Assembly (NCBI GenBank): GCA_964568875.1
Contig: CAZMSH010000004.1
Span: forward strand, 6,816-70,815
Origin: an uncultured Rikenellaceae bacterium
Lineage (GTDB): Bacteria > Bacteroidota > Bacteroidia > Bacteroidales > VadinHA17
Direction of reading: 5' to 3'
Length of the DNA stretch: 64,000 nucleotides
Of this stretch, positions 29,904-56,705 are shown piece by piece. Every line of letters begins with the position of its first letter. Positions within the stretch are counted from its first letter, which is position 1. The notes beneath the pieces are model-generated. The model was not told the origin of the DNA. It was given only the letters and a program-made list of their open reading frames with translations, and made no database searches. Made by a program: the position numbers and the translations under genes.

Positions 29904-29976
29904 ACGGGTGTAGCTCAGTTGGTAGAGCACTGGTCTCCAAAACCAGGTGTCGGGAGTTCGAGTCTCTCCTCCCGTG
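29904..29976 (+). tRNA. tRNA-Trp (anticodon CCA)
   Basis: 73 nt. Anticodon stem-loop CTGGT-CTCCAAA-ACCAG, T-arm GGGAG-TTCGAGT-CTCTC. One T-T mismatch in the acceptor stem. Canonical position between tuf and secE. Confidence 0.88.
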
Positions 29977-29992
29977 CAAACATAAAGTCGAA

Positions 29993-30184: not shown

Positions 30185-30199
30185 TGGCTGAGGGTTCAG

Positions 30200-30748: not shown

Positions 30749-30830
30749 CGAAGATATTGGCGGCTATAATAATTATAATGCTTCCTGAATAGCAGCCAAG
30801 CTCTCGCAATAAACAAGCAAATTTAAAATT

Positions 30831-31274: not shown

Positions 31275-31291
31275 TTATTTAAGAGGATAAG

Positions 31292-31987: not shown

Positions 31988-32013
31988 TGTTTATCAGAAA
32001 ACATTTATGAATT

Positions 32014-32532
32014 ATGAGACGAGAAGAGAAAAATGAAATAATTAACAGTCTTACTGAGAGTATAAATCAGTTCAGCCACTTTTACCTGACTGACATTGCT
32101 CAGCTGAATGCTGCCGATACAAGTACCCTCAGAAGAAAGTGTTTCGAAAATGAGATTAAACTCATTGTAGTAAAGAACACTCTTCTGAAAAGAGCACTTG
32201 AACAATCGGGAAAGGACCTTGGAGAACTCTATGATGTTCTTGATGGTCCTACTTCTGTCATGTTTTCAAATAACGGAAATGCTCCTGCAAAACTTATCAA
32301 GGAGTTCCGTAAGAAAAAGGACAAACCACTTCTTAAAGGCGCATACGTACAGGAATCGGTGTACCTTGGAGATATTATGCTCGACTCACTTGTTGCTCTC
32401 AAAACAAAAGAGGAACTGGTTGGCGACGTCATAATGCTGCTCCAGTCACCGGCGAAAAACGTTATTTCCGCCCTGCAGTCAGGTGGTAATAAGATTCATG
32501 GTGTTCTTGAAACACTGTCAAAAAGAGATTAA
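32014..32532 (+). CDS. rplJ: 50S ribosomal protein L10
   Basis: 172 aa, in the conserved rplA-rplJ-rplL position. Confidence 0.95.
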   Translation: MRREEKNEIINSLTESINQFSHFYLTDIAQLNAADTSTLRRKCFENEIKLIVVKNTLLKRALEQSGKDLGELYDVLDGPTSVMFSNNGNAPAKLIKEFRKKKDKPLLKGAYVQESVYLGDIMLDSLVALKTKEELVGDVIMLLQSPAKNVISALQSGGNKIHGVLETLSKRD

Positions 32533-32568
32533 TACCAATTGTAAAACCACATTAAATAAACAATAAAA

Positions 32569-32952
32569 ATGGCAGATCTTAAGAAATTTGCAGAAGAACT
32601 TGTAAATCTTACTGTTAAGGAAGTTAACGAACTTGCTACTATCCTCAAGGAGGAGTACGGAATTGAACCTGCTGCTGCAGCTGTTGCTGTTGCCGGACCC
32701 GCTGCTGGCGGAGGTGACGCTGCTGCTGCTGCTGAAGAGAAGACATCTTTTGATGTTATTCTTAAGGCAGCCGGTGGACAGAAACTCCAGATTGTAAAAC
32801 TCGTTAAGGAAATTACCGGTCTCGGTCTCAAGGAAGCCAAGGCAGTAGTTGACTCTGCACCAGCGCCTGTTAAGGAGGGTGTATCAAAAGATGAAGCAGA
32901 ATCTATTAAAAACCAGTTAGTTGAAGCAGGAGCTGAAGTTGAACTTAAATAA
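32569..32952 (+). CDS. rplL: 50S ribosomal protein L7/L12
   Basis: 127 aa. Ala-rich hinge and a C-terminal domain with [23 protein letters not shown] sequence. Confidence 0.97.
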
Positions 32953-32975
32953 GTTAAACCAGATTGACGGGTTAC

Positions 32976-33017
32976 AGGTTTAGAATCCCTTGATCCAAGG
33001 GGTTCTAAGCCTTTTTA
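32976..33017 (+). terminator. hairpin plus T-run between rplL and rpoB (probable partial terminator/attenuator)
   Basis: aggtttagaatccctt (32976-32991) pairs with aaggggttctaagcct (32997-33012), including G-U pairs, followed by TTTTT. Confidence 0.55.
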
Positions 33018-33056
33018 TTATTAGATGTTATTGTAATTCAATAAATCCCATCGTCA

Positions 33057-36000: not shown

Positions 36001-36866
36001 ACAAGTGGACAACTGACAAGAAGAAGAATGATCAGATAAAAGAGCTTCTCCATAATTATATAAATAAATATAAGGAGATTGACAGTATCCATAAGCGCAA
36101 GAAGTACAATATCACTATCGGTGATGAACTGCCGGCTGGTATTATTCGTCTTGCCAAGGTATACATCGCGAAGAAGCGTAAGATCCGTGTGGGAGACAAG
36201 ATGGCCGGAAGGCATGGTAACAAGGGTATTGTTGCCAAGATAGTCAGGGTTGAGGATATGCCCTTCCTTGAAGACGGAACTCCTGTTGACATTGTTCTTA
36301 ACCCTCTTGGTGTACCTTCGAGGATGAACCTGGGTCAGATATATGAAACGGTTCTGGGATGGGCCGGAGTAAAGCTGGGCATTAAGTTCTCATCGCCTAT
36401 TTTTGACGGGGCATCTATTGGTCAGATAAATGAATATACCGATCAGGCAGGCGTTCCAAGATACGGAAAGACATATCTGTATGACGGAAGTACAGGTGAG
36501 AGATTTGACCAGCCTGCGACGGTAGGAGTTATTTATATGCTTAAGCTTGGTCATATGGTTGATGACAAGATGCATGCCCGTTCGATAGGTCCCTACTCCC
36601 TTATTACCCAGCAACCTTTGGGTGGTAAGGCACAGTTTGGAGGTCAGCGTTTTGGTGAGATGGAAGTATGGGCCCTCGAAGCTTTCGGAGCTGCTCATAT
36701 ACTACAGGAGATCCTTACGATAAAATCTGATGATGTCATTGGCAGGGCCAAGGCATATGAATCGATCGTAAAGGGTGAGCCTATGCCTCAACCCGGTATT
36801 CCGGAATCGCTCAATGTGCTGCTGCACGAACTCAGAGGTCTGGGACTGAGCGTGATACTTGACTGA
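33057..36866 (+). CDS. rpoB: DNA-directed RNA polymerase subunit beta
   Basis: 1269 aa with collinear RpoB motifs (e.g. [23 protein letters not shown]). Confidence 0.99.
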
Positions 36867-36901
36867 TATAAAATGAATAATTGTAAAGAAAACTACGGAA
36901 T

Positions 36902-39900
36902 ATGTCGTTCAGAAGAGATCTAAAGACAAAGCCAAGTTATTCAAAAATCTCTATAGGACTTGCATCACCGGAGGAGATACTTGATCGCTCCAGCGGCGAA
37001 GTATTGAAGCCGGAGACTATTAATTATCGTACTTACAAACCGGAACGTGATGGTCTTTTCTGTGAAAGGATTTTTGGTCCGGTGAAGGATTACGAGTGCC
37101 ATTGCGGCAAATACAAGCGAATAAGGTACAAAGGTATAGTCTGCGACCGGTGCGGGGTTGAAGTAACAGAGAAGAAAGTCCGCCGTGAAAGAATGGGACA
37201 CATCTCGCTGGTGGTTCCGGTTGCTCATATATGGTATTTCAGATCCCTTCCCAATAAGATCGGATACCTTCTTGGTTTGCCAACCAAGAAGCTTGATTCA
37301 ATAATCTATTATGAGAGGTACGTTGTTATCAATCCCGGAATAAAGGCAGTTGACGGTATTAAGTACCTGGATTTCCTTACCGAGGAGGAGTATCTTGAGA
37401 TTACCGAATCACTTCCAAAAGATAATCAGTATCTCGAGGATGATAATCCTGACAAGTTCATTGCCGACATGGGGGCAGATGCCATATACAAACTGCTTCA
37501 GAGGCTTGATCTGGATGAGTTGTCATATTCATTGCGTCACAGGGCCAATACCGAAACTTCACAACAGAGGAAGAATGAAGCACTTAAGCGCCTGCAGGTT
37601 GTAGAGGCATTCAGGGAATCAAAGAATGTAAATGAGCCAGAGTGGATGGTGATAAAGGTTGTACCTGTTATCCCACCTGAGCTGAGACCATTGGTTCCTC
37701 TTGATGGAGGCAGGTTCGCCACGAGTGACCTTAATGATCTTTACAGGAGGGTTATAATAAGGAATAACAGGCTCAAAAGGCTTATTGAGATCAAGGCTCC
37801 GGAGGTGATTCTCAGAAACGAAAAGAGAATGCTTCAGGAGGCAGTCGATTCACTGTTTGACAATTCACGAAAGGCAAATGCAGTGAAGACCGATGCCAAC
37901 AGACCCCTTAAGTCATTAAGCGATAGCCTTAAAGGAAAACAGGGTCGTTTCAGGCAGAACCTTTTGGGTAAGAGGGTTGACTATTCGGCACGTTCGGTAA
38001 TCGTTGTCGGTCCTGAACTCAGGCTTCACGAATGCGGGCTGCCCAAGGATATGGCAGCCGAACTATATAAGCCTTTTATCATAAGAAAACTTATAGAAAG
38101 AGGTATTGTCAAGACTGTTAAGTCAGCCAAGAAGATTGTTGACAGGAAAGACCCTGTAGTGTGGGATATACTAGAGAATGTACTAAAGGGTCATCCGGTT
38201 CTGTTAAACAGGGCCCCTACACTTCACAGGCTGGGTATCCAGGCTTTTCAGCCAAAACTTATTGAGGGTAAGGCTATTCAGCTCCATCCGTTGGTATGTA
38301 CAGCTTTCAATGCCGACTTTGACGGTGACCAGATGGCAGTACACCTTCCACTTGGAAATGCTGCAATACTTGAAGCCCAGATACTTATGCTGGCTTCCCA
38401 CAATATTCTGAACCCTGCCAACGGAGCACCCATTACAGTTCCTTCACAGGATATGGTATTGGGTCTCTACTACATGACCAAGGCAAGAAAGAGTACTGAA
38501 ACAGAGAAGGTAAACGGAGAAGGCCTCGTATTCTATTCCCCTGAAGAGGTGAATATAGCATACAACGAAGGCAGGGTAGAACTGCACGCGGTTATCAGGG
38601 TAAAAGTTGATGATGTCGTTGAAGGAAAGAGGGTTAATCATTTGATTGAGACAACCGTCGGAAGGGTGCTCTTCAATGAGGTTGTACCTGAAGAGGTTGG
38701 ATTCATTAATGAACTGCTGACAAAGAAATCACTCAGAGATATCATTGGTAATGTATTGAAGTTAAGCGGTACAGCCAAAACTGCAGAGTTCCTTGACAGT
38801 ATCAAGGACCTGGGATATTATATGGCTTTCAAGGGAGGCCTCTCTTTCAATCTCGACGATGTCATTATACCCCAGGCGAAGACTGATTTCGTAAAGGAGG
38901 GCTATGACCAGGTTGAAGAGGTTCTTGCCAACTACAACATGGGCTTTATTACCAATAATGAAAGATATAATCAGATAATTGATATATGGACACATGTGAA
39001 TGCCAGGCTGACCCAGGAACTGATGAAGCAGATCTCGACAGACAGGCAGGGCTTCAATTCTGTCTACATGATGCTTGATTCAGGTGCGAGGGGTTCAAAG
39101 GAGCAGATACGACAGCTTTCAGGCATGAGGGGTCTTATGGCCAAACCTCAGAAGTCGGGAGCAACAGGATCAGAAATCATTGAAAACCCTATCCTATCTA
39201 ACTTCAAGGAGGGATTGTCGGTACTCGAGTACTTCATATCCACACACGGTGCCCGTAAGGGTCTGGCCGACACAGCTCTCAAGACTGCTGATGCCGGATA
39301 TCTTACCCGTCGTCTGGTTGATGTTTCGCAGGATGTGATCATCAGCGAGGAGGATTGTGGCACACTGAGGGGACTTGTCGCTACAGCCATCAAGAAGAAT
39401 GAAGAGGTTGTGGAGACCCTGTATGAGAGGATACTCGGTCGTACTGCGGTGCATAATGTTTACCATCCTCTTACAGGAGACCTTATTGTTTCGTCAGGGG
39501 ACGAGCTTACTGAAGAACTGGCCAAATATATTGAGGATTCACCAATTGAGCAGGTAGAGATCAGGTCAGTGCTTACATGTGAATCGAAGAAAGGTGTCTG
39601 CAGTAAGTGTTACGGCAGGAATCTTTCTACCGGAAAGATGGTTCAGAGAGGAGAGGCAGTAGGCGTAATAGCAGCCCAGAGTATTGGTGAGCCCGGTACA
39701 CAGCTGACACTTCGTACATTCCACGTGGGAGGAACAGCCTCTAATATTACAACAGAATCAAGCCTTATTGCCCGTTACGGAGGTATTGCTGAGATTGATG
39801 AACTAAGATCGGTTACAAAAACTGACCCTGATAAGGGCAAAATAGATGTGGTTATCGGACGGCTTGGCGAGTTGAGGATAGTTGACAAGAAGACAGGAAT

Positions 39901-41194
39901 ATCACTCACAACCCATACCATACCTTATGGGTCTAAACTCTACATCAAGCCTGGCCAGGAAATTGAAAAGGGACAGCTGATCTGTGAATGGGACCCGTTC
40001 AATGCCGTAATCATTTCTGAGATTGCGGGTAAGGTAGCTTTTGACTATCTTATAGAAGGTGTTACCTTCCGTGAAGAGTCTGATGAGCAGACCGGATTCC
40101 GTGAGAAGGTTATCGTGGAGAGCCGCGATAAAACCAAGAACCCGGCTATCAGGATACTGTCACCTGAGGGAGTAGAGATTAAGTCATACAACCTCCCTGT
40201 CGGAGCTCACCTGGTGGTTGACAATGAGAAGATTGTCGAAGCCGGAGATATATTGGTCAAGATACCACGCGCAGTCGGAAAGTCAGGTGACATAACCGGT
40301 GGTCTGCCAAGAGTAACGGAGTTATTCGAAGCCAGAAATCCTTCTAACCCGGCTATTGTTGCCGAGATAGACGGAGAAATTCAATTCGGGAAAATAAAGC
40401 GCGGTAACCGCGAGATATCCATTACTTCGAAGGCAGGGGAGGTTAAGAAATATCTTGTACCTCTTTCAAAGCAGATACTTGTACAGGAAAATGATTATGT
40501 AAGGGCCGGAATACCTCTGTCTGATGGTGCAATTACACCCACAGATATTCTTAATATCAAGGGTCCGACAAAAGTACAGGAGTATATTGTCAATGAGATT
40601 CAGGAGGTTTACCGTCTGCAAGGTGTGAAAATCAATGACAAACACTTTGAGATAATAGTGCGTCAGATGATGCGCAAGGTCGAGATAATCGACCCGGGTG
40701 ATACTAAGTTTCTTGAGCGGCAGGTTGTTGACAAGCTTGAGTTTATGGATGAGAATGACTGGATATTCGGTAAGAAAATCGTACTTGATGCCGGTGACTC
40801 TGAAACATTCAAGCCCGGGATGGTGGTAACAGCACGCAAGCTTCGCGATGAGAATTCATTGCTCAAGCGTCGTGACAGGAAGCTGGTGGATGCGCGTGAT
40901 ACTATCCCCGCTACCTCAAGTCAGGTTCTTCAGGGAATTACCAGGGCTGCGCTTCAGACTAACAGTTTCTTCTCAGCGGCCTCTTTCCAGGAGACTACAA
41001 AAGTGCTTAATGAGGCGGCAATACTGGGTAAGGTTGACAGACTTGAGGGACTGAAGGAGAATGTTATTGTAGGTCACCTGATACCGGCAGGTACAGGAGC
41101 CAGAGAATACAACAACATGATTGTCGGGTCACTTGAAGAGTATGAAAGCCTGGTAACGGCTGAACAGGATGCTTCAACTGTTGAGGAGGAATAA
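36902..41194 (+). CDS. rpoC: DNA-directed RNA polymerase subunit beta'
   Basis: 1430 aa. N-terminal zinc-binding Cys cluster and the catalytic NADFDGDQM motif. Confidence 0.99.
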
Positions 41195-47320: not shown

Positions 47321-48967
47321 TTAATTCAGGAAGAGCTTCATATCCTCATCGACGGTTGTAATACCTGTGATGCCGAAGTTTTCGACCAGCACCTTTGCCA
47401 CATTAGGTGACAGAAATGCAGGGAGGGTCGGTCCGAGGTGAATGTTCTTCACTCCGAGGTAAAGAAGTGCGAGAAGTACTATGACAGCCTTCTGCTCATA
47501 CCATGCAATATTGTAAGCTATCGGCAGTTCGTTGATGTCGTTCAGCTTAAATACCTCTTTCAGTGCCAGCGCTATTGTTGCAAGCGAGTATGAATCGTTG
47601 CACTGGCCTGCATCGAGAACCCTTGGGATTCCGTTTATATCGCCAAGCTGAAGCTTGTTATACCTGTATTTGGCACAACCTGCAGTGAGTATCACGGTAT
47701 CACCTGGCAGTTTTTGAGCAAACTCGGTGTAGTAGTCACGTGACTTCATTCTTCCGTCGCAGCCGGCCATCACGAAGAACTTCCTGATAGCGCCTGACTT
47801 CACTGCCTCTACTACTTTGTCAGCCAGCTGCAGCACCTGGTTATGTGCAAATCCGCCTATTATGGTACCGGTCTCAATCTCTACAGGAGGGGCACACTTT
47901 TTTGCGTGTTCAATGATCTGTGAGAAGTCTTTCTCACCGCCAGGCTTTCTGTCTTCAATATGTGTCGCTCCGGGGAACCCTGACGAGCCTGTCGTGTAAA
48001 CCCTTTCTCTGTAACTGTCGCGCAGAGGTACTATACAGTTGGTAGTAAACAGTATTGGTCCGTTGAATGTTTCAAACTCTGTGGTCTGCTTCCACCATGC
48101 GTTGCCATAGTTGCCCACGAAGTGGCTGTACTTTTTGAATGCCGGATAGTAGTTGGCAGGAAGCATCTCGCTGTGCGTATAGACATCGACACCTGTTCCC
48201 TCGGTCTGCCTGAGCAGATCTTCCATGTCCTTGAGGTCGTGGCCGCTTATAAGGATAGCCGGGTTATTCCTGACACCGATATTGACCTCTGTTATTTCAG
48301 GATTACCGTAAGCGGTGGTGTTTGCCTTGTCGAGAAGAGCCATTACCTCAACTCCGTGCTTACCTGTCTCCAGTACCAGAGCTGTGAGTTCTTCAACAGA
48401 AAGGGAATCGTCAGTAGTGGCAGCCAGTGCCTTTTGCATGAATTCGTCAACATTGTCGGCCGAATGGCCCAGGTTGCCGGCATGTTCGGCATAAGCAGCC
48501 ATTCCTTTGACGCCGTAGATAACCAGTTCCCGGAGTGACCTGATATCCTCGTCAGCGGTGGCAAGCACTCCCACAAGAGATGCCCTGGCCTCCATATCTG
48601 ACACACTTACGGGTGTCCATGTTGCAGAATTGTGAAGATTGGCAGGTATCTCGATACCCTTCTCAGTCATTTCTTTCCTGAGCTCCTCCCTGACCGAGAT
48701 ACCCTGCCATATCTTCTCAATAATTTTTTCATTGTCGAAGTTTGCATTGGTGATTGTTGTGAAGAGTGCTTCCTGAACGTACCTGTCAACCTTCGAACTC
48801 GAATAGTGGTTTTCCCTTGCTATTGAGGCAAGAATTGAAACACCCTTCGCCACGTATACCAGCAGATCCTGCATTGCAGCCACATCACTGTCTTTTCCGC
48901 AAACGCCACGTGTTACGCACCCCGTTCCCCTGGCTGTCTCCTGGCATTGATAACAAAACATACTCAT
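47321..48967 (-). CDS. hcp: hydroxylamine reductase / hybrid-cluster protein
   Basis: 548 aa. N-terminal CyqCqet..C..gvCGK cysteine cluster, with length and collinearity typical of Hcp. Confidence 0.95.
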
Positions 48968-49045
48968 AATAAATCCTTTTCTTTTAATGGTTAATACTTT
49001 ATTATATTTTTGATATTCATAGTTTTAACTTTATACATCAGGTTT

Positions 49046-49996
49046 TTACACCCACTCCTCCTTTATTACGTCGCCATTGATTCCCACGATGGCCATCTTT
49101 ACAGGTACTTTCCTTTGTGCCTTTTCAGCTCCGGCCTTCACAAGCCGCATCAGTCCGCCGCAGCAAGGCACTTCCATCATCATTACCGTTATGGTATTGA
49201 CTTTGGCATCATCTATCAGTGCAGTGATCTTATTTACGTATACCTCCATATTACTGTCGAGCTTCGGGCAGGCGATAGCCACACTCTTGCCCTTCAGGTA
49301 TTTCCCGTGGAAATTGCCGGCGGCAAAAGCAACACAGTCGGCGGCTATCATCAGGTCTGAATTCTGGAAATAACCTGCATTCGGGTTGATAAGGTGCATT
49401 TGCACAGGCCACTGTCTCAGTTCTGAAGGGGCATCTGCAGGAGCTGTGCCGACTGCAAAAGCAATATTGTCTCTTTCAATTGTCATAGCGCGGGAACCGG
49501 GACAACCAGCAGAGTGAGAGTGAGAGTGACCACAACCATGATCATGTCCGTGGCCGTGAGTTATAGCCTGGTGATCGGTTTTGGCGCCGGCAGTAGAACT
49601 GCCAGGTTTGTGCGAACTGATTACCTCCAGCACCTCATCTACTTCGAAGTCTGCTTTCTCCCTGTTGGCAAGCAGAAATTCAATGCCTTCCTTCAGAAAG
49701 CCAAATTCATTGTGGTCTTTAAGATGTTTAAGGTGAGCGATGATTGTGTTTTTCCCCTTTCCGATCATCTCCTCCATGACTGCTTTCTCGTTGTACGGGA
49801 CTGCCTCTCGGGTCTCCATCGTTATAGCTCCTTCAGGGCAGTGTCCGATGCATGCTCCCAGACCGTCACACATCAGATCGCTGATAAGACGAGCCTTCCC
49901 ATCAACAATCTGTAGTGCTCCTTCATGACAATTAGGTATGCAAATACCGCATCCGTTGCACTTCTCTTCATCTATTCTTATTATCTCTCTTTTCAT
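49046..49996 (-). CDS. FrdX-like 2x[4Fe-4S] ferredoxin-domain protein with His-rich linker
   Basis: 316 aa. CNGCGICIPNC and CDGLGACIGHCP motifs, linker HGHGHDHGCGHSHSHS, C-terminal domain with ACPKLD and EVPCCGG. First gene of the hcp operon. Confidence 0.75.
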   Translation of the reverse strand: MKREIIRIDEEKCNGCGICIPNCHEGALQIVDGKARLISDLMCDGLGACIGHCPEGAITMETREAVPYNEKAVMEEMIGKGKNTIIAHLKHLKDHNEFGFLKEGIEFLLANREKADFEVDEVLEVISSHKPGSSTAGAKTDHQAITHGHGHDHGCGHSHSHSAGCPGSRAMTIERDNIAFAVGTAPADAPSELRQWPVQMHLINPNAGYFQNSDLMIAADCVAFAAGNFHGKYLKGKSVAIACPKLDSNMEVYVNKITALIDDAKVNTITVMMMEVPCCGGLMRLVKAGAEKAQRKVPVKMAIVGINGDVIKEEWV

Positions 49997-50027
49997 AATT
50001 TTCGGTTATTTATCTTTTATTTTAATG

Positions 50028-50035
50028 CAAACTTA
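50028..50035 (-). promoter_or_regulatory. Bacteroidota -7 promoter box (TAAGTTTG on the minus strand) for frdX-hcp
   Basis: Plus strand reads caaactta. It lies 32 nt upstream of the frdX-like start codon. Confidence 0.45.
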
Positions 50036-50056
50036 GACCAATTCCAAATAAGAAAA

Positions 50057-50072
50057 TGTAACAATTGTTACA
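50057..50072. promoter_or_regulatory. perfect 16-bp palindrome TGTAACAATTGTTACA, candidate HcpR (Crp/Fnr) operator
   Basis: Perfect inverted repeat GTAAC-N4-GTTAC in the divergent frdX-hcp / hcpR intergenic region. Its centre is about 40 nt from both inferred transcription starts. Confidence 0.65.
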
Positions 50073-50091
50073 AACCAGAAACAAAAAGAAA

Positions 50092-50099
50092 TAATTTTG
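50092..50099 (+). promoter_or_regulatory. Bacteroidota -7 promoter box TAATTTTG for hcpR
   Basis: TAnnTTTG match 25 nt upstream of the ATG at 50124. Confidence 0.45.
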
Positions 50100-50123
50100 C
50101 AGGAACCAAAGGATTACAAGATC

Positions 50124-50798
50124 ATGCTGAACTATGAGCTTCTTTCCAGGTCACCTGTATTCAGGGGACTTGATGCCGGAACCACAAGAGAACTACTGGA
50201 GAAGGTTAATTACAGGATCAGAAAGTATACGCCCGGCTCAGTCATTGCCCTAAGTGGAGAGGAGATTACCTCATTGCAGATAGTTGCGTCGGGCCTGGTT
50301 AAGGGGGAAATGGTTGATTATTCGGGAAGAACGTTGAAGATAGAGGATATTGGCGCTCCCAGGGCTCTCGCCCCAGCCTTCCTTTTCGGTTCCAGCAACA
50401 GATATCCTGTTAATGTAACAGCTGTGACAGAGGCCGAAATTCTTACCATCGACAAGCATGATTTTGTAAGATTACTTTGCAGCAGTGACTGCCTTCTTAC
50501 AAATTATCTTGATACCATTTCAAACAGGTCGCAGTTTTTGTCTGAGAAGATCAGGTTCATCGCCTTTAAGACCATAAAGGGTAAGCTGGCTAATTATATT
50601 CTTGCCAAGGCAGGTCAGAATCTCAGAAGCATAAGGTTTGGGCGGTCGCAGCAGGAACTGTCTGATTTTTTTGGTGTTGCAAGGCCATCACTTTCGAGGG
50701 CACTGAGGGAGATGGAAGAAGAGGGAATAATAACTGCGGGTGGTAAGGATATTACGATTCTTAACAGAGATGGGCTTATTGCACTTACAAAACAGTAG
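50124..50798 (+). CDS. hcpR: Crp/Fnr family transcriptional regulator, probable HcpR
   Basis: 224 aa from the ATG at 50124. cNMP-binding-like beta-roll and a C-terminal HTH (SQQELSDFFGVARPSLSRALREM). Divergent from hcp. Confidence 0.72.
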   Translation: MLNYELLSRSPVFRGLDAGTTRELLEKVNYRIRKYTPGSVIALSGEEITSLQIVASGLVKGEMVDYSGRTLKIEDIGAPRALAPAFLFGSSNRYPVNVTAVTEAEILTIDKHDFVRLLCSSDCLLTNYLDTISNRSQFLSEKIRFIAFKTIKGKLANYILAKAGQNLRSIRFGRSQQELSDFFGVARPSLSRALREMEEEGIITAGGKDITILNRDGLIALTKQ

Positions 50799-50803
50799 TG
50801 ACT

Positions 50804-50828
50804 GCATGTAACAAATTTTGTTTCATGC
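50804..50828. promoter_or_regulatory. 25-nt near-palindrome GCATGTAACAAATTTTGTTTCATGC (operator or weak terminator)
   Basis: 10 of 11 arm positions pair. It contains the same TGTAAC half-site as the HcpR box, but with N7 spacing. Lies 6 nt after the hcpR stop and 80 nt before the DRTGG operon. Confidence 0.35.
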
Positions 50829-50907
50829 GGTTTCTCATAGGTAGATCGGTCATAAAACCCTAAATTAGCAGTGAGGATTTGTATTGCAGAAGACTATATA
50901 TAAAAAT

Positions 50908-51252
50908 ATGGTATTAAGTGAAGTAGCAAAGTTGTCAGGTGGCATTGTGATAACCTCTCATTCCAATACCGGAGTGGAGGTTGATTATGCCTTTGCCTCT
51001 GACCTGATGAGTGATGTTCTTACAACCGATATTCACAATCTGTTGCTTATTACAGGGTTGTCAAATCTTCAAACCATTCGTACGGCAGAGATGGCTGATA
51101 TATTCGGAATAGTCCTGGTAAGAGGAAAAAAGGCGACGGAAGAGATGAAGAGACTTGCCAACGAGCATGGTATCGTAATAATAGAAACAGAGTGGTCGAT
51201 GTTCAGGGTATGTGGTGCTCTTACTTCGGCAGGCCTCAAACCGGTTTTCTGA
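50908..51252 (+). CDS. DRTGG-domain protein 1
   Basis: 114 aa from the ATG at 50908 (the ORF-track TTG at 50884 is possible). YAFASDLMSDVL...LLITGLSN. Paralogous to the gene at 52976. Confidence 0.68.
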   Translation: MVLSEVAKLSGGIVITSHSNTGVEVDYAFASDLMSDVLTTDIHNLLLITGLSNLQTIRTAEMADIFGIVLVRGKKATEEMKRLANEHGIVIIETEWSMFRVCGALTSAGLKPVF

Positions 51253-51253
51253 G

Positions 51254-51664
51254 ATGGAGCTGACATACAGGGTAGAGGGGGGAGATTTTGCCGGTGCCGG
51301 CCACTCCTCGAGTGAGGTTAAGAAGGTGCTGAAACAGCTTAACATACCTCCGGAAATCATCAAGAGAATTGTTGTTGCTCTTTACGAAGCTGAGGTTAAC
51401 ATAGTTGCCCATGCCTGGCGCGGGGTTATCATGGTGGAGATTGACACCAGCGGTATAAAATGCATTCTGGAGGATGAGGGGCCGGGTATTCCGGAGATAG
51501 ACAAGGCGATGGAACCCGGATGGACTACGGCTTCGCAGGCTGTAAGGGAGATGGGCTTCGGAGCCGGCATGGGATTACCCAACATAAAAAAGAATACCGA
51601 CAGGCTTGAGATAACAAGTGAAGTAGGCGTTGGCACAAGGGTTGAATTTGAAGTATTGTTATAG
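51254..51664 (+). CDS. RsbW/SpoIIAB-like anti-sigma-type serine kinase (HATPase_c_2 fold)
   Basis: 136 aa from the ATG at 51254, 1 nt after the upstream stop. N-box EAEVNIVAHA, G1 EDEGPGIP, G2 GFGAGMGLPNI. Confidence 0.78.
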   Translation: MELTYRVEGGDFAGAGHSSSEVKKVLKQLNIPPEIIKRIVVALYEAEVNIVAHAWRGVIMVEIDTSGIKCILEDEGPGIPEIDKAMEPGWTTASQAVREMGFGAGMGLPNIKKNTDRLEITSEVGVGTRVEFEVLL

Positions 51665-51666
51665 AT

Positions 51667-52998
51667 ATGGCTAAAGGCGAGTTTTATCATGCCCTGAAGA
51701 TTGAAAGGGATAAATGCATAGGCTGTGTTCATTGCATAAGGGTATGCCCTACACAGGCACTAAGGGTCATTGGTGGTAAAGCCACGCTTTTCGGGAAGAG
51801 GTGTGTTGATTGTGGTGAGTGTCTCAGGGCTTGTCCTGTTAATGCAATTTCAGTCGCTGGTGATGATTTTGAAAAGATATTTGATTACAGAATCAGGATA
51901 GCAATTATTCCGGCGGTTATCTACGGGCAGTTCTCGAAAAAGCATTCGTATCAGAAAATAACAGAGTCATTAAAGAATATAGGGTTCACCCACATATATG
52001 AGGCTGAACGATCGATACCGGTAATAATCAGGAGGTTCAAGTCAATAATTGAGGGCGATGGTCAGCCTAAACCACTTATATCATCTTTTTGTCCTGCCAT
52101 AGTAAGGCTTATACAGGTGCGTTTCCCGTCTCTCACCGGCAATATTGCAGGGGTGAAACCTCCGGTTGACCTGACAGCAATCATGGTCAGGGAACAGTTG
52201 CGTAAAGTAGGATGGGCTGATGAAGAGGTGGGCATCTTTTATGTAACGCCGTGTGCTGCCAAGATAGCCGCTGTCAAGAGCCCGGTGGGAGAGGATATCT
52301 CATATGTTGACGGTGTTATCAATTTAAACAGCCTCTACAACAGGATGTATCCTGAGCTTAAGGCAATGGAGGATGTAAGGCAGAAAAAAAACAGGATGCT
52401 AAGGCCTGAAGAACTGTTGTGGAGCCTCACCAGGGGAGAGTCGGTTCATCAGTCAGGCAGGGTTCTGGCAGTTGATGGGATACAGAATGCCATTGACATA
52501 CTTGAGAAGATAGAAGATGATGAGGTGAGGAATCTTGATTTCCTTGAACTGAGGGCATGCGATGAAGGCTGTGCAGGTGGTGTTCTCAATGTGGAGAATC
52601 GCTTTCTGGCGGTGGAAAGACTTACCCGGAAGGCAAGGATTACAGCCGAGGAAGAGTACCATAAGGATAACTGGTCTGAACATGACTGGTTATTTCTGGA
52701 GAAGAAGTCGGGAATAGGAGAGATAAATCCCAGGTCTATTCTTTCCCTTGATGCAGACTTAAAGGCCGCTTTGGGTAAGATGGACCGTAAAAGAAAGATA
52801 CTCGATATACTTCCTCTGGTTGATTGCGGAGTGTGCGGGTCGCCCGATTGCGATACATTTGCCGAGGATATCATTCAGGGAAGGGCTACCCTGGATAAGT
52901 GTGTCTTTTTCAGCAGAGAAGGGATGGTTTCCACATGGACATCAGATAAGATTAAGGACATAAACAATATACCGGATGAAATTAAAGGAACTGATTGA
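51667..52998 (+). CDS. [FeFe]-hydrogenase H-domain-like protein, sensory type, with N-terminal 2x[4Fe-4S] ferredoxin and C-terminal Cx2Cx4Cx16C Fe-S domain
   Basis: 443 aa. CIGCVHCIRVCP and CVDCGECLRACP motifs. H-cluster signatures SSFCPAI, TPCAAKIAA and ELRACDEGCAGG. C-terminal DCGVCGSPDC...C. Confidence 0.8.
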   Translation: MAKGEFYHALKIERDKCIGCVHCIRVCPTQALRVIGGKATLFGKRCVDCGECLRACPVNAISVAGDDFEKIFDYRIRIAIIPAVIYGQFSKKHSYQKITESLKNIGFTHIYEAERSIPVIIRRFKSIIEGDGQPKPLISSFCPAIVRLIQVRFPSLTGNIAGVKPPVDLTAIMVREQLRKVGWADEEVGIFYVTPCAAKIAAVKSPVGEDISYVDGVINLNSLYNRMYPELKAMEDVRQKKNRMLRPEELLWSLTRGESVHQSGRVLAVDGIQNAIDILEKIEDDEVRNLDFLELRACDEGCAGGVLNVENRFLAVERLTRKARITAEEEYHKDNWSEHDWLFLEKKSGIGEINPRSILSLDADLKAALGKMDRKRKILDILPLVDCGVCGSPDCDTFAEDIIQGRATLDKCVFFSREGMVSTWTSDKIKDINNIPDEIKGTD

Positions 52999-53311
52999 AA
53001 GTGCCGGCCTTGAAATAATTACAGGCGGAACAGGGCTTGACAGGGACGTAACAGGTGGTTATACATCTGATCTGCTTAGTGATGTGATGGGTAACTCACG
53101 CGAGGGCCAGGTATGGATCACAATGCAGACACATATGAATGTTATTGCTGTTGCAACTCTCAAGGAGCATGCAGCAGTGATATTTGTCTCTGGCAACAGA
53201 CCGGCTGCTGATGTGGCAGAGAAGGCAGTTGCCGAGGATTTGACACTGCTTGCCACAAACGATGAGGCCTTTACCATATCGGGCAAGATATATTCACTAT
53301 TAGGGAAATAA
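52976..53311 (+). CDS. DRTGG-domain protein 2
   Basis: 111 aa containing the literal DRDVTGG followed by YTSDLLSDVM. The start overlaps the upstream gene by 23 nt in another frame. Confidence 0.75.
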   Translation: MKLKELIESAGLEIITGGTGLDRDVTGGYTSDLLSDVMGNSREGQVWITMQTHMNVIAVATLKEHAAVIFVSGNRPAADVAEKAVAEDLTLLATNDEAFTISGKIYSLLGK

Positions 53312-53314
53312 GTT

Positions 53315-54052
53315 ATGAGAGTATACCGGGCCGACCTGCATACGCATACCGTTTTGTCTCCTTGCGGTGATCTGGAGATGAGTGCCCGGAATATTATAGA
53401 TGCTGCTCACGCCAAAGAGATTGATATCCTTGGAATAACTGACCATAACTCCACCCTTAACTCTCAGATGATAAAGGAAATGGGTGAGGATGAGGGTTTG
53501 TTGGTATTGACAGGAGCTGAGGTTACCACAAGGGAAGAGATTCACTGTTTATGTTTTCTCGAGAACCGTGATGAGCTTGAAGAGTTCCAGGCATGGATCG
53601 AAGACAATATCACACGTATACCCAATTCACCTCAGAGATTTGGTTATCAGGTCGTAGTAGACAGTGAAGATAACATTATCGATGAGGTGGAGTATCTTCT
53701 GATAATGTCACTTTCAAAAACGATAGATGAGGTTGAGAGGAAAGTTCATGAATTAAACGGATTGTTTATCCCTGCCCATGTAGACAGATCTGTAAACAGT
53801 ATTCTGAGTCAGCTGGGTTTTTTCCCACCCGGCTTGAAGTATGATGCTGTTGAGGTTACCCCATACACTGAATTTGAGACTTTAAGCAAGAATCACCCTG
53901 TAATTGGTAATCTCCCGTACATAAGAAGTTCTGATTCTCACTTCCTGCATAATGTTGGCAAGGTAAGTACCGGTTTATTGCTGAACGAATTGTCATTTTC
54001 TGAGATAAGAATGGCACTTGCCGGGGAAGGAGGAAGAAAGGTCGTGCACTGA
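53315..54052 (+). CDS. PHP-domain metal-dependent phosphoesterase
   Basis: 245 aa. DLHTHTVLSPCG, ITDHNS, PAHVDR and SSDSH metal-ligand motifs. Confidence 0.85.
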   Translation: MRVYRADLHTHTVLSPCGDLEMSARNIIDAAHAKEIDILGITDHNSTLNSQMIKEMGEDEGLLVLTGAEVTTREEIHCLCFLENRDELEEFQAWIEDNITRIPNSPQRFGYQVVVDSEDNIIDEVEYLLIMSLSKTIDEVERKVHELNGLFIPAHVDRSVNSILSQLGFFPPGLKYDAVEVTPYTEFETLSKNHPVIGNLPYIRSSDSHFLHNVGKVSTGLLLNELSFSEIRMALAGEGGRKVVH

Positions 54053-54603
54053 TGAAAACAATTACCGACCATATTGTTGACATTATGCAAAACTCTACCA
54101 GGGCAGGCGCTACTGAAGTAAGACTATCTGTCAGTATAGACCCTGAATCGGGGTATATCTCTTTTGAGGTTGCTGATAATGGCAGGGGAATTCCAAATGA
54201 TATTATAGACCGGGTTGCTGATCCGTTCACCACCTCAAGGAAGACAAGAAAGGTTGGTTTGGGCCTTCCGTTGCTAAGACAGCATGCTTCGATGTCAGGA
54301 GGCAGTCTTGAGATAAAATCGGAAGAGGGAGCCGGTACAATTGTAAAAGCGGTATTTGGTTACGAAAGCATTGACCGTCAGCCTCTTGGTGGTTTAGGTG
54401 AGGCTGTCGCCCTCTTCATAACAGGAAATCCCGGTGTAAACCTTATCTTCAGCTACTCTTCCCCTGCGGGGAGCTATGCGGTCTCTTCAGTGGAGATATC
54501 AGAAAGTCTTGATGGCGATGATCTGGGCAGACCTGTCTGGTTTGCAGTTATCAGGGAGATGATTAATGATAATCTTATAGAACTGGGGTCAGGAAACGTT
54601 TGA
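54052..54603 (+). CDS. stand-alone GHKL (histidine-kinase-like) ATPase without DHp domain
   Basis: 183 aa. N-box MQNSTRAGA, G1 ADNGRGIP, G2 GLGLPLL. The start ATG shares one base with the upstream TGA (ctgATGa). Confidence 0.75.
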   Translation: MKTITDHIVDIMQNSTRAGATEVRLSVSIDPESGYISFEVADNGRGIPNDIIDRVADPFTTSRKTRKVGLGLPLLRQHASMSGGSLEIKSEEGAGTIVKAVFGYESIDRQPLGGLGEAVALFITGNPGVNLIFSYSSPAGSYAVSSVEISESLDGDDLGRPVWFAVIREMINDNLIELGSGNV

Positions 54604-54620
54604 TTTGCAGTCTGTAAAGA

Positions 54621-56705
54621 CTAATCCTGATCCGTTATTGATGATGGAAGTATAATTGTGAAACAGGTACCATCACCGGGCTTGCTTTCCAGTTCAATCC
54701 TGCCCTTGTTGACCTTAACAAGTTCTCCTACCAGCTTGAGACCAAATCCGGTACCCTTTTCATTTTCTGTGCCGGGTGTACTCTCAATATCTCCTGGTGA
54801 GAAGAGAATCGCCTGTCTTTCAGGAGGTATACCTATACCATTATCGCATATCTTTATCATAACCTCACTTTCCGGTTTGGGCTTTTCCTTAAGCAGTATA
54901 CTTATCCTCCCTCCCTTGCGGGTGTATTTTATTGCATTTGACAGCAGATTCCTGATAATAATATCAATGAGCTCCTTGTCTACCCAGGCTTTGGTTCCTC
55001 CAATCTGCGTAAAATTGACGGCTATACTCTTTCTGTCTGCATTATCCTTGTAAATACTCATATTGGTAAGGATAATACCGGCAAGGTCGTGCAGTTCCGG
55101 TGCATATCTTATATGGTCCTCCTGCCCCCTTCCCCATACCAGCATGTTTTCAAGCAGGTTGATAACCATCTGTGAATAGTTGATGCACGAACCTGCAAGT
55201 GATTCATATTTGTCGCGGTATTCATCTTCTTTCAACAGGTTAAGTATATACTGGATGTTTACAACAGGGCTCCTCAGATCATGTGCGATCACCGAGAATA
55301 TTTTGTTTTTAAGCTGAATTGTTTCGGTGAGGTTTTTGTTTTGTTCCTCTATCTGCCTGCTGTATTCGACAGCCTTGTTCTTGGTTCTGGTGAGTTCCCT
55401 CGTTCGCGAGTGGATCATCGATTCAAGATCTCTGTTGAGCTGTTCGAGGTTGTTCTTGAGTCTCTCCTTTTCGCGGAATGAGCTTACCCACTGATATATC
55501 AGAAGGCCTGACTGTATGCACACAAAAATAATTATTGATTCTGACAGGATATATCCTCCCTGACCGGTTACGTTCACAATAGCCAGCACAATATCATGAA
55601 TAGCGGCTGACACAATCAGCAGGAAGCCTCCGAAATAGATGGCATCGGGTAACTGACGGTTTTTTATGAATCTTATAGCGCTGCTTGTCAGAGAGTTAAT
55701 TGCGAATAACACCACAAAGATGTATACTGGGAATGTGAAATATGAAAAACTCTTCACCGGGAGAACAACTGTTGCTGCTGTCAGCGATATGAAGAATACG
55801 ACAGAGACATTGGCAAAAACTTTGTGAAACTGGTATTTATAGATCTCACTCAGGAACAGGAATGCTCCTGTGACCATAATATAAAGGCTCAGATATTCAA
55901 ATCTCACTGTCCATTCCCATGACATATCAACAACTGTATATATCAGAAACTGGTTTGTGAAAAGAGGTCTGAGGCCCATTCCCAGGAGCGTGACTGCAAA
56001 ATAGAGAGATGTTTTGTCTTCGCGGTATAGCAAAAAGAAAAATGCAAAGAAGAGAGTAAAGGCTGCAAGTATGCTTACTGTAGCAATTGACCCGCCATAT
56101 TGCAATGAAGCCACTGATTGAATGTGGCTGAATGAACCAAATTCCACCGGGAGCCAGAAACCGCCTCTTCGGTGATGGAAGTTGGATACGTTGAGAATAA
56201 TTTCAATGGTATCTTTTTCTGGAACAAACCTCATGATTGTAGGTTCGTATGCCGGCACAGTAGTCTCCTCTGAAACTCCCGGCACTCCGTTGCCTGCTGT
56301 GAATTTTCCGTCAACATACAGGTCGTAGGATGAATCAAAGACCTTTAGCATCAGGCCAAGCGCCGGAAGATCGGTCTTAGGAAGAACTATTCTGAGTCTG
56401 TATGTTGCATAGCCATCACCTGTTGTTTTGATTCCCGGGAGGTCAGCGTCGGTCCAGTATGAGGGAACTTTGATATAACCGTCAGGTCTGGGTGATGTGT
56501 GACCTGAAAAGTTATGAGGCCTCAGGAGTTTGTTCCAGTAGAACTCCCATTCGCCGTTAAGGCTTATTCTGTACTTTTCAGTTATGGTTTCGCCGCTCAG
56601 ATCGAGGATTCCCTTAACGGGTTGAGGTACTGATTCTGATGAAAACACTGAAAGGCTGATGATAAAGCTCAGCAGTACCGGTGAAATCAGTTTAACAATC
56701 TTCAT
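54621..56705 (-). CDS. 7TMR-DISM sensor histidine kinase
   Basis: About 694 aa from the ATG at 56705. Signal peptide, extracellular LDLSG...W.FYWN (7TMR-DISMED2-like) domain, 7 TM helices, coiled coil. H-box FSVIAHDLRSP, N-box NLLSNAIKYT, G1 DNGIGIP, G2 GTGFGL. Confidence 0.85.
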   Translation of the reverse strand: MKIVKLISPVLLSFIISLSVFSSESVPQPVKGILDLSGETITEKYRISLNGEWEFYWNKLLRPHNFSGHTSPRPDGYIKVPSYWTDADLPGIKTTGDGYATYRLRIVLPKTDLPALGLMLKVFDSSYDLYVDGKFTAGNGVPGVSEETTVPAYEPTIMRFVPEKDTIEIILNVSNFHHRRGGFWLPVEFGSFSHIQSVASLQYGGSIATVSILAAFTLFFAFFFLLYREDKTSLYFAVTLLGMGLRPLFTNQFLIYTVVDMSWEWTVRFEYLSLYIMVTGAFLFLSEIYKYQFHKVFANVSVVFFISLTAATVVLPVKSFSYFTFPVYIFVVLFAINSLTSSAIRFIKNRQLPDAIYFGGFLLIVSAAIHDIVLAIVNVTGQGGYILSESIIIFVCIQSGLLIYQWVSSFREKERLKNNLEQLNRDLESMIHSRTRELTRTKNKAVEYSRQIEEQNKNLTETIQLKNKIFSVIAHDLRSPVVNIQYILNLLKEDEYRDKYESLAGSCINYSQMVINLLENMLVWGRGQEDHIRYAPELHDLAGIILTNMSIYKDNADRKSIAVNFTQIGGTKAWVDKELIDIIIRNLLSNAIKYTRKGGRISILLKEKPKPESEVMIKICDNGIGIPPERQAILFSPGDIESTPGTENEKGTGFGLKLVGELVKVNKGRIELESKPGDGTCFTIILPSSITDQD

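Follow-up and report, generated by a model that had tools for sequence, protein, structure and literature searches.

A putative H2-sensor [FeFe] hydrogenase of group D (M2e) encoded within a six-gene cassette of a Bacteroidales bacterium

Of the proposed H2 sensors, the group D [FeFe] hydrogenases are the most poorly understood. To our knowledge, TamHydS is the sole member of the group to have been studied, and we know of no member of the group for which a sensing or signalling function, or a partner, has been shown experimentally. The PAS-less architecture, designated M2e or group D, goes back to Calusinska 2010 (cited in PMC3561251 and PMC8163306). It is defined by a C-terminal Cx2Cx4Cx16C motif and the absence of PAS (PMC8163306, PMC6984386), and its genes usually have protein kinases close by and bifurcating hydrogenases downstream (PMC3561251), a setting that is typical without being a strict criterion. 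Characterisation of TamHydS, the enzyme of Thermoanaerobacter mathranii, began in 2019-2020 (PMC6984386, PMC8163306, PMC10407848, PMC11803613, PMC13104023). It binds [2Fe]adt, displays low activity and high affinity for H2, and stabilises the Hred state (PMC8163306); a 2026 study of the enzyme found its C-terminal cluster to be unresponsive to H2. Bacteroidia already figure in published group D lists, with eight genera or species. Group C (M2f) examples, namely Thermotoga maritima HydS, Ruminococcus albus HydS and Thermoanaerobacterium HfsB, have a proposed H2-sensing role and adjacent bifurcating hydrogenases, and they resemble the protein described here in the loss of the group A proton pathway and pocket Met, in the two N-terminal [4Fe-4S] clusters and in a C-terminal Cx2Cx4Cx16C motif, but they differ from it in carrying a C-terminal PAS domain and in their PP2C/SpoIIE phosphatase and kinase partners.

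The window, by which we mean the whole 64-kb stretch of DNA that was analysed, encodes a protein, hereafter HydS (Table 1), that shares 35% identity with TamHydS along its whole length by BLASTP (284 bits, E = 3e-96), as against tblastn scores at the HydS locus of 102 bits for a group C PAS-HydS (Carboxylicivirga) and 52 bits for a group A HydA. By these pairwise scores TamHydS, of group D, appears to be a nearer relative of HydS than the group C and group A proteins are. We consider it probable that HydS is a group D (subclass M2e) putative H2-sensor [FeFe] hydrogenase, an orthologue-level relative of TamHydS that signals to the partners encoded in its cassette. HydS is thus a further member of the described TamHydS-type family, whose domain layout has already been published.

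Table 1. Positions in the window of HydS, its motifs and the other cassette genes
Feature	Coordinates	Strand	Details
DRTGG-domain protein 1	50884..51252	+	122 aa as listed, TTG start; cassette gene 1
SpoIIAB/RsbW-like GHKL ATPase (HATPase_c_2)	51254..51664	+	136 aa from ATG 51254
HydS-type group D (M2e) [FeFe]-hydrogenase-like protein	51667..52998	+	443 aa, start ATG 51667, stop TGA 52998
F-domain, two CxxCxxCxxxCP [4Fe-4S] motifs (C17-P28, C46-P57)	51715..51837	+	Regular expression, Pfam Fer4
Motif 1, SSFCPAI, residues 139-145	52081..52101	+	F141 = CpI C299; C142 = CpI C300, cluster ligand
Motif 2, TPCAAKIAA, residues 194-202	52246..52272	+	Alignment with CpI and TamHydS; regular expression
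T255, E258, D270	52429..52476	+	TamHydS S249, E252, D265; residue mapping
Motif 3, ELRACDEGCAGGVLN, residues 294-308	52546..52590	+	E294 = TamHydS E289; R296 = CpI M497
C-terminal [4Fe-4S] motif, C387-x2-C390-x4-C395-x16-C412	52825..52902	+	Regular expression, Pfam FeS (RnfB-N type)
DRTGG-domain protein 2	52976..53311	+	111 aa; start overlaps HydS end by 23 nt
PHP-domain metal-dependent phosphoesterase	53315..54052	+	245 aa; Pfam PHP E = 7.3e-7
Stand-alone GHKL ATPase (HATPase_c)	54052..54603	+	183 aa; Pfam HATPase_c E = 4.4e-17

Domain layout and fold of HydS

The two N-terminal CxxCxxCxxxCP motifs that an earlier note on this DNA had pointed out were recovered both by regular expression and as a Pfam Fer4 pair (residues 11-62), with cysteines C17/20/23/27 in CIGCVHCIRVCP, which starts at residue 17, and C46/49/52/56 in CVDCGECLRACP, which starts at residue 46. 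The H-domain follows as Fe_hyd_lg_C at residues 85-305 (E = 1.7e-25), and residues 382-414 match the FeS model PF04060 at positions 1-33 of 33 (E = 2.8e-11; 43.4 bits against a cut-off of 23 for this 33-residue model, with its four Cys present). Residues 377-420 align in addition with positions 10-53 of the NCBIfam RsxB model, in agreement with the earlier recognition of an RnfB N-terminal pattern. The likeness to the N-terminal Fe-S domain of RnfB/RsxB thus extends to a full-length match with identical Cx2Cx4Cx16C spacing, but in the Rnf subunit this domain forms the membrane-proximal N-terminus, whereas in HydS it is a C-terminal appendage to the H-domain. Its cysteines correspond to C379/382/387/404 of TamHydS, and the Cys of HydS total exactly 16, every one of which falls within the motifs described. 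From these motifs HydS would be expected to bind three such [4Fe-4S] clusters, two at the N-terminus and one at the C-terminus.

The Pfam matches to HydS include no PAS domain, and 31 residues remain after C412. The C-terminal module had been read as standing in place of PAS, a view we do not retain because group C proteins carry the cluster plus PAS, the cluster lying upstream of the PAS domain. The companion statement that the characterised sensory examples all bear PAS is likewise superseded, as the PAS-less TamHydS has been characterised biochemically.

An AlphaFold2 model of HydS (pLDDT 85.7, pTM 0.86) found CbA5H, DdH, CpI and HydABC HydA as its best Foldseek matches, at probability 1.00 and TM 0.62-0.65. 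HydS shares with the group A enzymes (CpI, DdH, CrHydA1, HydABC HydA) the H-domain fold (TM about 0.63), the four cluster Cys, equivalents of K358, P324 and E495 and a ferredoxin-like F-domain. It differs from them in the replacement of C299, E279, E282, S319, M353, M497 and E361, in a deletion of ~42 residues between motifs 2 and 3, in the extra C-terminal Fe-S domain and in the lack of a small-subunit-like C-terminus. The likeness to TamHydS is closer, comprising the three-domain layout, a similar length (435 against 443 aa), the four H-cluster Cys and the Lys, a hydroxyl residue at the M353 position, the loss of C299, a short C355-C499 segment (100 residues against 102 in HydS), the E/E/(S/T)/D proton path, the C-terminal Cx2Cx4Cx16C motif without PAS and GHKL-type ATPase neighbours. 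The two proteins differ at C299 (Ala137 in TamHydS, Phe in HydS), at M497 (Leu291, Arg) and at E282 (Glu122 kept, Ser), and their hosts are a thermophilic Firmicute and a mesophilic-type Bacteroidales, respectively.

H-cluster motifs and proton path

Motif register was established from phmmer alignments to solved hydrogenases and from a MAFFT alignment with CpI and TamHydS. The CpI reference sequence was validated as 100% identical to 1c4a/3c8y, and the TamHydS sequence was reconstructed from a supplementary coding sequence that carried OCR errors and was accepted once 17/17 residue numbers quoted in the paper had matched. Both kinds of alignment agree with the by-eye register, and the mis-registration that the earlier note had itself envisaged was not found; one small correction concerns TPCAAKIAA, which spans residues 194-202 and had been placed at 193-201.

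The four [4Fe-4S]H cysteines are retained, C196, C298 and C302 aligning with the CpI ligands C355, C499 and C503 and C142 as listed in Table 1, and the Lys that contacts the CN ligand is likewise kept as K199 (CpI K358). At the position of the proton-transfer Cys, CpI C299, HydS has Phe141, and both pocket Met are replaced, M353 by T194 and M497 by R296. The GGGQP stretch has become GGVLN, GGVL aligning with CpI GGQP, and the C196-C298 spacing of 102 residues is 42 shorter than the 144 of CpI, close to the earlier estimate of about 40. A202 does align with CpI E361, in keeping with the Glu-to-Ala exchange of the earlier note, but the description of this Glu as a relay residue was mistaken, since E361 lies outside the canonical group A proton pathway, which in CpI consists of C299, E279, S319, E282 and R286. 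Further positions of that pathway are replaced in HydS (E279 by R123, S319 by A161 and E282 by S126 in the MAFFT alignment).

A different proton path, made up of E252, E289, S/T249 and D265 in TamHydS, is described as exclusive to group D (PMC10407848), and mutagenesis of TamHydS has tested its first two residues, E252 and E289. This path is complete in HydS, with E258, E294, T255 and D270 providing 4/4 residues. Across 119 homologues E258, E294 and D270 are each found in 119/119 and T255 in 118/119. The M353 position points in the same direction, as its replacement by a hydroxyl donor is conserved in M2e (PMC8163306), which T194 fits; of 150 family representatives, 76 have T and 54 have S at this position. 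The earlier note had recognised in HydS the hallmark of group C sensory hydrogenases. The sensory-type character stands, with cluster ligands and Lys kept and the group A path and pocket Met lost, but the assignment belongs to group D, whose reportedly exclusive proton-path residues set HydS apart from group C.

From the residues retained, HydS is predicted to bind an H-cluster with its cubane on C142, C196, C298 and C302 and with K199 and P166 contacting the [2Fe] subsite. Protons would travel via E258, E294, T255 and D270 in that order, by homology to TamHydS, and not along the group A pathway. If HydS behaves as TamHydS does, turning over slowly and stabilising its reduced H-cluster, it would be suited to reporting ambient H2 rather than processing it.

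An aromatic residue and an arginine at the C299 and M497 positions

In group A enzymes the positions of CpI C299 and M497 contact the azadithiolate amine. An aromatic residue at position 141 and Arg at position 296 are fixed in 119/119 Bacteroidia-type homologues, position 141 being F in 102 and Y in 17. R296, C142, C298, C302 and K199 are each present in 119/119 and T194 in 115/119; all eight N-terminal motif Cys and the four H-cluster Cys are invariant across the same set, all 16 HydS Cys are conserved in homologues, and P166 is conserved in >90% of the Bacteroidia-type clade. F141 and R296 are therefore the signature of a large natural clade and not a peculiarity of this gene. In the wider set of 150 family representatives, F/Y occupies the C299 position in 19% and R the M497 position in 26%, and R296 co-occurs with E258 in 37/39. 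Active-site variants in the TamHydS literature comprise A131C, A137C, S267M/A/D/C and L291M, and our literature search found no study of Phe at C299 or Arg at M497, in line with the earlier view that neither is among the studied variants.

F141 and R296 probably tune the H-cluster. Bulky residues flanking the adt amine might equally hinder the subsite, which is a point against the H-cluster reading, and this raises the alternative that HydS lacks [2Fe] altogether, its pocket filled by F/Y141 and R296, and acts as a Nar1-like multi-[4Fe-4S] sensor of redox or ferredoxin state. Such a protein would account for a neighbourhood that, in the window as in its closest relatives, has no hydrogenase or maturase genes, and the R296-E258 pairing could then be a salt bridge instead of part of a proton relay. 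However, K199, the bridging C302, E258 and E294 are invariant and P166 nearly so, and all of these are known only for their part at the [2Fe] subsite; the F/R proteins lie beside HydABC in most species, and once beside HydG; and the predicted fold matches holo-hydrogenases. Retention of K199, C302, P166, E258 and E294 for the subsite is unlike Nar1/NARF-like proteins, and on residue conservation and gene context HydS would not be counted among them, an outcome the earlier note had held open. We judge the [2Fe]-less alternative distinctly improbable. A packing swap, in which F141 would be offset by a smaller residue where the proton channel used to run, at 161 (TamHydS L157) or 123 (F119), was also considered and rejected, as no covariation was seen among the 150 representatives.

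The cassette and its hydrogenase neighbourhood

HydS is the third of six tightly packed or overlapping genes, in the order DRTGG, SpoIIAB-like ATPase, HydS, DRTGG, PHP and GHKL ATPase, so that kinase-like ATPases flank it on both sides. The first DRTGG protein gives a weak Pfam match under the gathering score (E = 0.001), but an orthologous gene of 114-118 aa occupies the same position in relatives and was detected by tblastn at almost all of 80 related loci. The second gives a similarly weak match, also under the gathering score (E = 0.0016), and no significant match to PDB sequences; its position is conserved, and the relatives' copy is annotated as DRTGG and has a faint Hpr_kinase_N match. 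For the SpoIIAB-like ATPase, Pfam HATPase_c_2 was matched at E = 1.3e-9 and the NCBIfam anti-sigma F factor model at E = 2.4e-15, under its cut-off, with the SpoIIAB structures 1tid/1th8 as best PDB matches (E about 8e-6). The ORF lister starts this gene at GTG 51212. A same-strand gene of this type ends <=60 nt upstream of HydS in 72/87 loci. The PHP protein has weak PDB matches only (EndoQ, PHP phosphoesterases). The start of the second GHKL ATPase overlaps the PHP stop codon (ATGA); this protein lacks a DHp or His-phosphotransfer domain, its NCBIfam matches are confined to the catalytic ATP-binding part of histidine kinases, and its position is conserved in relatives. Promoter-like sites in 49900-54900 numbered 13 against a shuffled mean of 8.1 (sd 2.4), as scored with a sigma-70 consensus that is inappropriate for Bacteroidetes, and terminator-like sites there were at the shuffled level.

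The HATPase_c_2 protein upstream of HydS is most similar to SpoIIAB, an anti-sigma F/serine kinase, which recalls SpoIIAB/RsbW partner switching. The cassette differs from such systems in having no STAS antagonist, PP2C phosphatase or sigma factor, in whose places stand two DRTGG proteins, a PHP phosphoesterase and a second GHKL ATPase. Because STAS, PP2C and sigma factor are absent, the likeness is functional speculation, and it is in this sense that we speculate, with partner roles taken from domain names, that the cassette is a kinase/phosphatase partner-switching module. A literature search for DRTGG and PHP together with hydrogenase found no link of these domains to hydrogenases. HydS would signal to its co-transcribed partners, probably by conformational change, the candidates being the SpoIIAB-like serine-kinase-type ATPase, the PHP phosphoesterase, the second GHKL ATPase and the two small DRTGG proteins.

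Among 41 related loci (species) with full flanks, the complete cassette, PHP included, is present in 35, and a catalytic HydA, belonging to adjoining HydABC genes, lies <=10 kb from the cassette in 35/41. In most Bacteroidia the cassette thus sits between HydABC-type operons, which it presumably regulates, and in Carboxylicivirga HydG, a group C HydS and a SpoIIE phosphatase are found near it. This neighbourhood also bears on whether HydS could be a slow but truly catalytic hydrogenase, with ferredoxin as its electron partner via the F-clusters, that is itself regulated by its neighbours. Two N-terminal clusters are the usual electron relay and the proton path is conserved, yet TamHydS rates are very low, genes of this family always stand in an operon with ATPase/kinase-type genes, and a redundant catalyst is unlikely because high-activity HydABC adjoins in 35/41 loci; we regard this possibility as improbable.

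The window differs from TamHydS, and from most related loci, in its context. It contains no HydABC, and thus no bifurcating hydrogenase adjacent to HydS, and no hydrogenase or maturase gene was detected elsewhere in its 64 kb by Pfam on 10 large ORFs or by tblastn with HydA, HydB, HydC, HydG, group C HydS and SpoIIE. The window therefore offers HydS no hydrogenase to regulate and no HydG for shared maturation, which counts against the sensor reading. In the closest relatives the cassette likewise has no adjacent hydrogenase genes. A syntenic relative has the arrangement UbiA-Maf-S46 ... HydCBA-cassette-HydBAC, from which the lineage of the window lacks both flanking hydrogenase operons.

That loss would fit a decaying remnant, as would the split PHP gene of one relative and the ~14 C-terminal residues by which HydS is shorter than its orthologues. 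Against decay, the ORF is intact with 16/16 Cys and all signature residues kept, all six cassette genes of the window are intact, and dN/dS is about 0.03 relative to an orthologue of 88% identity that likewise has no hydrogenase genes beside it, a value to be read with synonymous sites near saturation. The remnant explanation is largely refuted already by this ratio and we find it hardly credible, and a pseudogene is rejected on the same ground. Judged from these sequence comparisons, the HydS gene appears functional and under strong purifying selection.

For a functional group D sensor, the absence of flanking hydrogenase genes here and in the nearest relatives implies that the sensor's target would lie elsewhere. 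A more far-reaching proposal, which we think unlikely, is that the F/Y and Arg pair marks a distinct group D branch in which an R296-E258 interaction and the aromatic cap lock a non-turnover sensor or exclude [2Fe], and that the uncoupled cassette of this lineage reports community H2 or redox state to non-hydrogenase targets. The hydrogenase-less context could in any event help to find sensor targets besides a neighbouring hydrogenase, and the cassette, which is highly conserved, is a specific candidate for the signalling route that has been missing for group D. The F/Y and R variant, present in ~1/5 to 1/4 of family representatives, provides a natural comparison with TamHydS, which has A and L at these positions, and this comparison could show in what way sensor behaviour depends on the second coordination sphere.

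Group assignment of HydS

The ORF for HydS, the [FeFe]-hydrogenase-like protein of the window, is real, and its 443-residue product contains exactly 16 cysteines, each inside a cluster motif (see table). A Pfam search found no PAS domain in the protein, and the earlier note had regarded the C-terminal Cx2Cx4Cx16C module in its place as unusual and had filed the protein with the sensory hydrogenases of group C. The sensory type stands, but the filing does not, and neither is the module unusual: subclass M2e, today's group D, is defined in the literature by a pair of N-terminal [4Fe-4S] motifs, an H-domain that lacks C299 and the two Met, a Cx2Cx4Cx16C C-terminus and the absence of PAS, and its Thermoanaerobacter mathranii representative, TamHydS, was characterised in Land et al. 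2019 and 2020 (PMC6984386, PMC8163306). According to the same work, M2e shares the Cx2Cx4Cx16C motif with M2f (group C), which does bear PAS, and in M2e replacement of M353 by Ser/Thr is well conserved while M497 is poorly conserved. Carere et al. [quoted passage not shown]

The TamHydS sequence (435 aa) was reconstructed from a coding sequence, damaged by OCR, that Schumann et al. 2026 supply as supplementary data, and agrees with 17/17 residue numbers quoted by those authors. It matches the window protein end to end with 35% identity and 58% positives (284 bits, E = 3e-96), compared with 102 bits for the Carboxylicivirga group C PAS-HydS and 52 bits for group A HydA. The group-D-exclusive proton path E252 -> E289 -> S/T249 -> D265 defined by Cabotaje et al. 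2023 (PMC10407848) has its equivalents in HydS residues E258, E294, T255 and D270, which are kept among close homologues in 119/119, 119/119, 118/119 and 119/119 sequences, respectively. Judged by the TamHydS match and these pathway residues, HydS is a group D [FeFe] hydrogenase of the sensory type, a kind already known; the 70-enzyme group D list that accompanies Schumann et al. 2026 as a supplement includes Parabacteroides, Odoribacter, Proteiniphilum, Marinilabilia, Anaerophaga and Alkaliflexus.

An AlphaFold2 model of HydS from a 119-sequence input was confident (pLDDT 85.7, pTM 0.86), and its top structural matches were the [FeFe] hydrogenases CbA5H, DdH, CpI and HydA of HydABC (probability 1.00, TM about 0.63); no solved group C or D structure was among the sequence or fold matches. 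Within the H-domain, model confidence is lowest (block pLDDT 64 vs ~90 on either side) in the GGVLNVEN loop past the bridging C302 (residues 301-310, window 52567-52596), which replaces GGGQP of group A. The C-terminal tail is poorly predicted from residue 411 onward (pLDDT 41-59), and directly past the last cluster Cys HydS is ~14-17 residues shorter than its closest orthologues (window 52905-52995, residues 414-443; alignment columns about 430-445).

Features of the HydS locus (window coordinates) and of the HydS protein (residue numbers)
Feature	Location	Strand	Remark
hcp (hybrid-cluster protein gene)	47321-48967	-	
316-aa Fe-S protein	49046-49996	-	N-terminal ferredoxin pair and His-rich linker; AF_0155-like annotation in relatives
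Crp/Fnr-family regulator	50097-50798	+	
DRTGG protein	50884-51252	+	
SpoIIAB-like HATPase_c_2 protein	51254-51664	+	
HydS	51667-52998	+	gene 3 of six
DRTGG protein (second)	52976-53311	+	
PHP phosphoesterase	53315-54052	+	
Stand-alone HATPase_c	54052-54603	+	
7TMR-DISM-type sensor histidine kinase, 733 aa	54621-56822	-	converges on cassette end
Ferredoxin-type pair	11-62		Pfam
N-terminal cluster motif 1	from C17		CIGCVHCIRVCP
N-terminal cluster motif 2	from C46		CVDCGECLRACP
[FeFe]-hydrogenase large-subunit domain	85-305		Pfam, E = 1.7e-25
H-domain Cys	C142, C196, C298, C302		CpI C300, C355, C499, C503
Other mapped residues	F141, T194, K199, A202, R296		CpI C299, M353, K358, E361, M497
Small 'FeS' domain of RnfB N-termini	382-414		Pfam, E = 2.8e-11
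C-terminal cluster motif	C387-x2-C390-x4-C395-x16-C412		

The Phe141/Arg296 active site

A phmmer comparison with solved hydrogenases aligned SSFCP to TSCCP, TPCAAK to MPCIAK and ELRACDEGCAGG to IEIMACVGGCIGG, and residues were mapped by alignment to a reference sequence of the group A enzyme CpI that was 100% identical to PDB 1c4a/3c8y. Both comparisons bear out the residue-level description made previously, in which the four cluster Cys are kept and the proton relay and pocket Met are lost, with two minor corrections: TPCAAKIAA is present but spans 194-202 rather than 193-201, and the supposed relay Glu is indeed replaced by Ala, but its CpI counterpart E361 lies outside the canonical proton pathway. 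The canonical pathway residues E279, E282 and S319 of CpI align to R123, S126 and A161, and the C196-C298 spacing is 102 residues vs 144 in CpI.

Where HydS has F141 and R296, TamHydS has Ala137 and Leu291, and the group C enzyme of Thermotoga maritima has Ala131 and Ser267; the C299 position is 'mostly' Ala across groups C and D (Cabotaje et al. 2023; PMC10407848). The family is large, with >4,100 proteins at E <= 1e-5 in a word-indexed search and 308 representatives at E <= 1e-30 in an exhaustive one. Among 150 representatives clustered at 50% identity, the C299 position is A in 45, F in 29, S in 26, T in 13 and Y in 6, the M497 position is R in 39, L in 18, N in 16, Y in 13, M in 11 and S in 11, and F-T-R is the second commonest triplet; F/Y141 is paired with R/K/H296 in 24/35 cases. 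E258 accompanies R296 in 37/39 representatives vs 73/111 of the remainder, a pairing that is no more than suggestive, since the sequences share kinship. The 119 Bacteroidia-type homologues, at 46-90% identity, carry Phe (102) or Tyr (17) at position 141, and R296 and K199 are each present in 119/119. Being fixed in these homologues and frequent across the family, the Phe/Arg pair is, on this comparative evidence, an old signature of a large clade and not a peculiarity or degeneration of the HydS gene. In the papers examined, the engineered variants at the equivalent positions are Cys, Met, Ala, Asp and Ser, so that the claim that Phe and Arg are unstudied there stands.

A Nar1-like redox sensor that carries no [2Fe] subcluster, though unlikely, is the most interesting alternative, since HydS has two bulky side chains next to the adt amine; K199, P166, the bridging C302, E258 and E294 are nevertheless all conserved in the clade, and the same F/R proteins adjoin HydABC and HydG in other species.

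The six-gene cassette and its surroundings

The six cassette genes are closely packed or overlapping on the + strand, and the identical set surrounds homologues at ~50% identity, with HydC/HydB/HydA trimeric hydrogenase genes on either side. A scan of species-representative genomes gave 80 loci, almost all of them with a Bacteroidia or Bacteroidota label (best 71% identity); of the 41 with full 10-kb flanks, 35 have the complete cassette and 35 a catalytic-type HydA <=10 kb away. The Carboxylicivirga locus adds a PAS-HydS of group C, accompanied by a SpoIIE phosphatase, and a HydG-like radical-SAM gene: an 18-kb stretch (L003/L004, 1760-19411) holds these together with two HydABC-type operons and the group D cassette, and therefore places both putative sensor types side by side in one organism. 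A shorter cassette (DRTGG, HATPase_c_2, HydS, sometimes the second DRTGG), without PHP or the second ATPase gene and usually without a neighbouring hydrogenase, occurs mostly in rumen or gut MAGs (L042, L056, L057, L062, L065, L069, L070, L076, L081, L084); in L062 the genes beyond the second DRTGG lie on the opposite strand. In the close relative L005, gene calling splits the PHP gene into ORFs of 98 and 116 aa (11682-12421), which reflects a frameshift or else a misassembly; on a second contig with the same protein (L006) the gene is intact (246 aa).

The window shares the upstream UbiA-Maf-peptidase S46 synteny with the related locus L001. Exactly at the site of the HydC/HydB/HydA operon of L001, with peptidase S46 on one side and the cassette on the other, the window has hcp, the Fe-S protein gene and the Crp-family regulator (47321-50798), a trio that looks like an hcp/HcpR-type nitrosative-stress unit in place of the hydrogenase genes. 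Downstream, the window has the convergent histidine kinase vs HydBAC in L001; this adjacency is kept in the close relatives L005, L007 and L008 but not in hydrogenase-flanked loci. Besides HydS, there is no hydrogenase, HydG or SpoIIE homologue anywhere within the 64-kb window, and the closest relatives (78-88% identity) likewise have a hydrogenase-less context. The window also carries an EF-Tu gene, L11-L1-L10-L7/L12 ribosomal protein genes and an rpoB-rpoC block (28649-41194), housekeeping genes by which the locus is chromosomal. Despite its surroundings the HydS gene is under strong purifying selection, with a dN/dS of about 0.03 against an 88%-identical orthologue and synonymous sites near saturation, which contradicts the reading of HydS as a decaying remnant.

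Proposed signalling role

In TamHydS, which binds [2Fe]adt, turnover is slow and Hred is stabilised (PMC8163306); the E252 and E289 variants of this enzyme lose activity (Cabotaje et al. 2023; PMC10407848). The window protein would likewise carry an H-cluster and may report H2 instead of processing it, passing the signal to the SpoIIAB-like ATPase, PHP phosphoesterase and DRTGG proteins, which would act as a kinase/phosphatase switch. A conformational signal is likelier than a redox relay via the C-terminal cluster because that cluster in TamHydS is redox-inert towards H2 (2026 study). Since TamHydS is catalytically competent, HydS could possibly be a slow enzyme, but the invariable operon link with ATPase/kinase-type genes and the high-activity HydABC that adjoins in most species make this less likely. 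For a sensory HydS the usual target would be the neighbouring HydABC, and in the window lineage the target must lie elsewhere. The interest that remains is in an uncharacterised, clade-wide F/Y + R active-site signature and in a conserved six-gene cassette that stands in the window without a hydrogenase.
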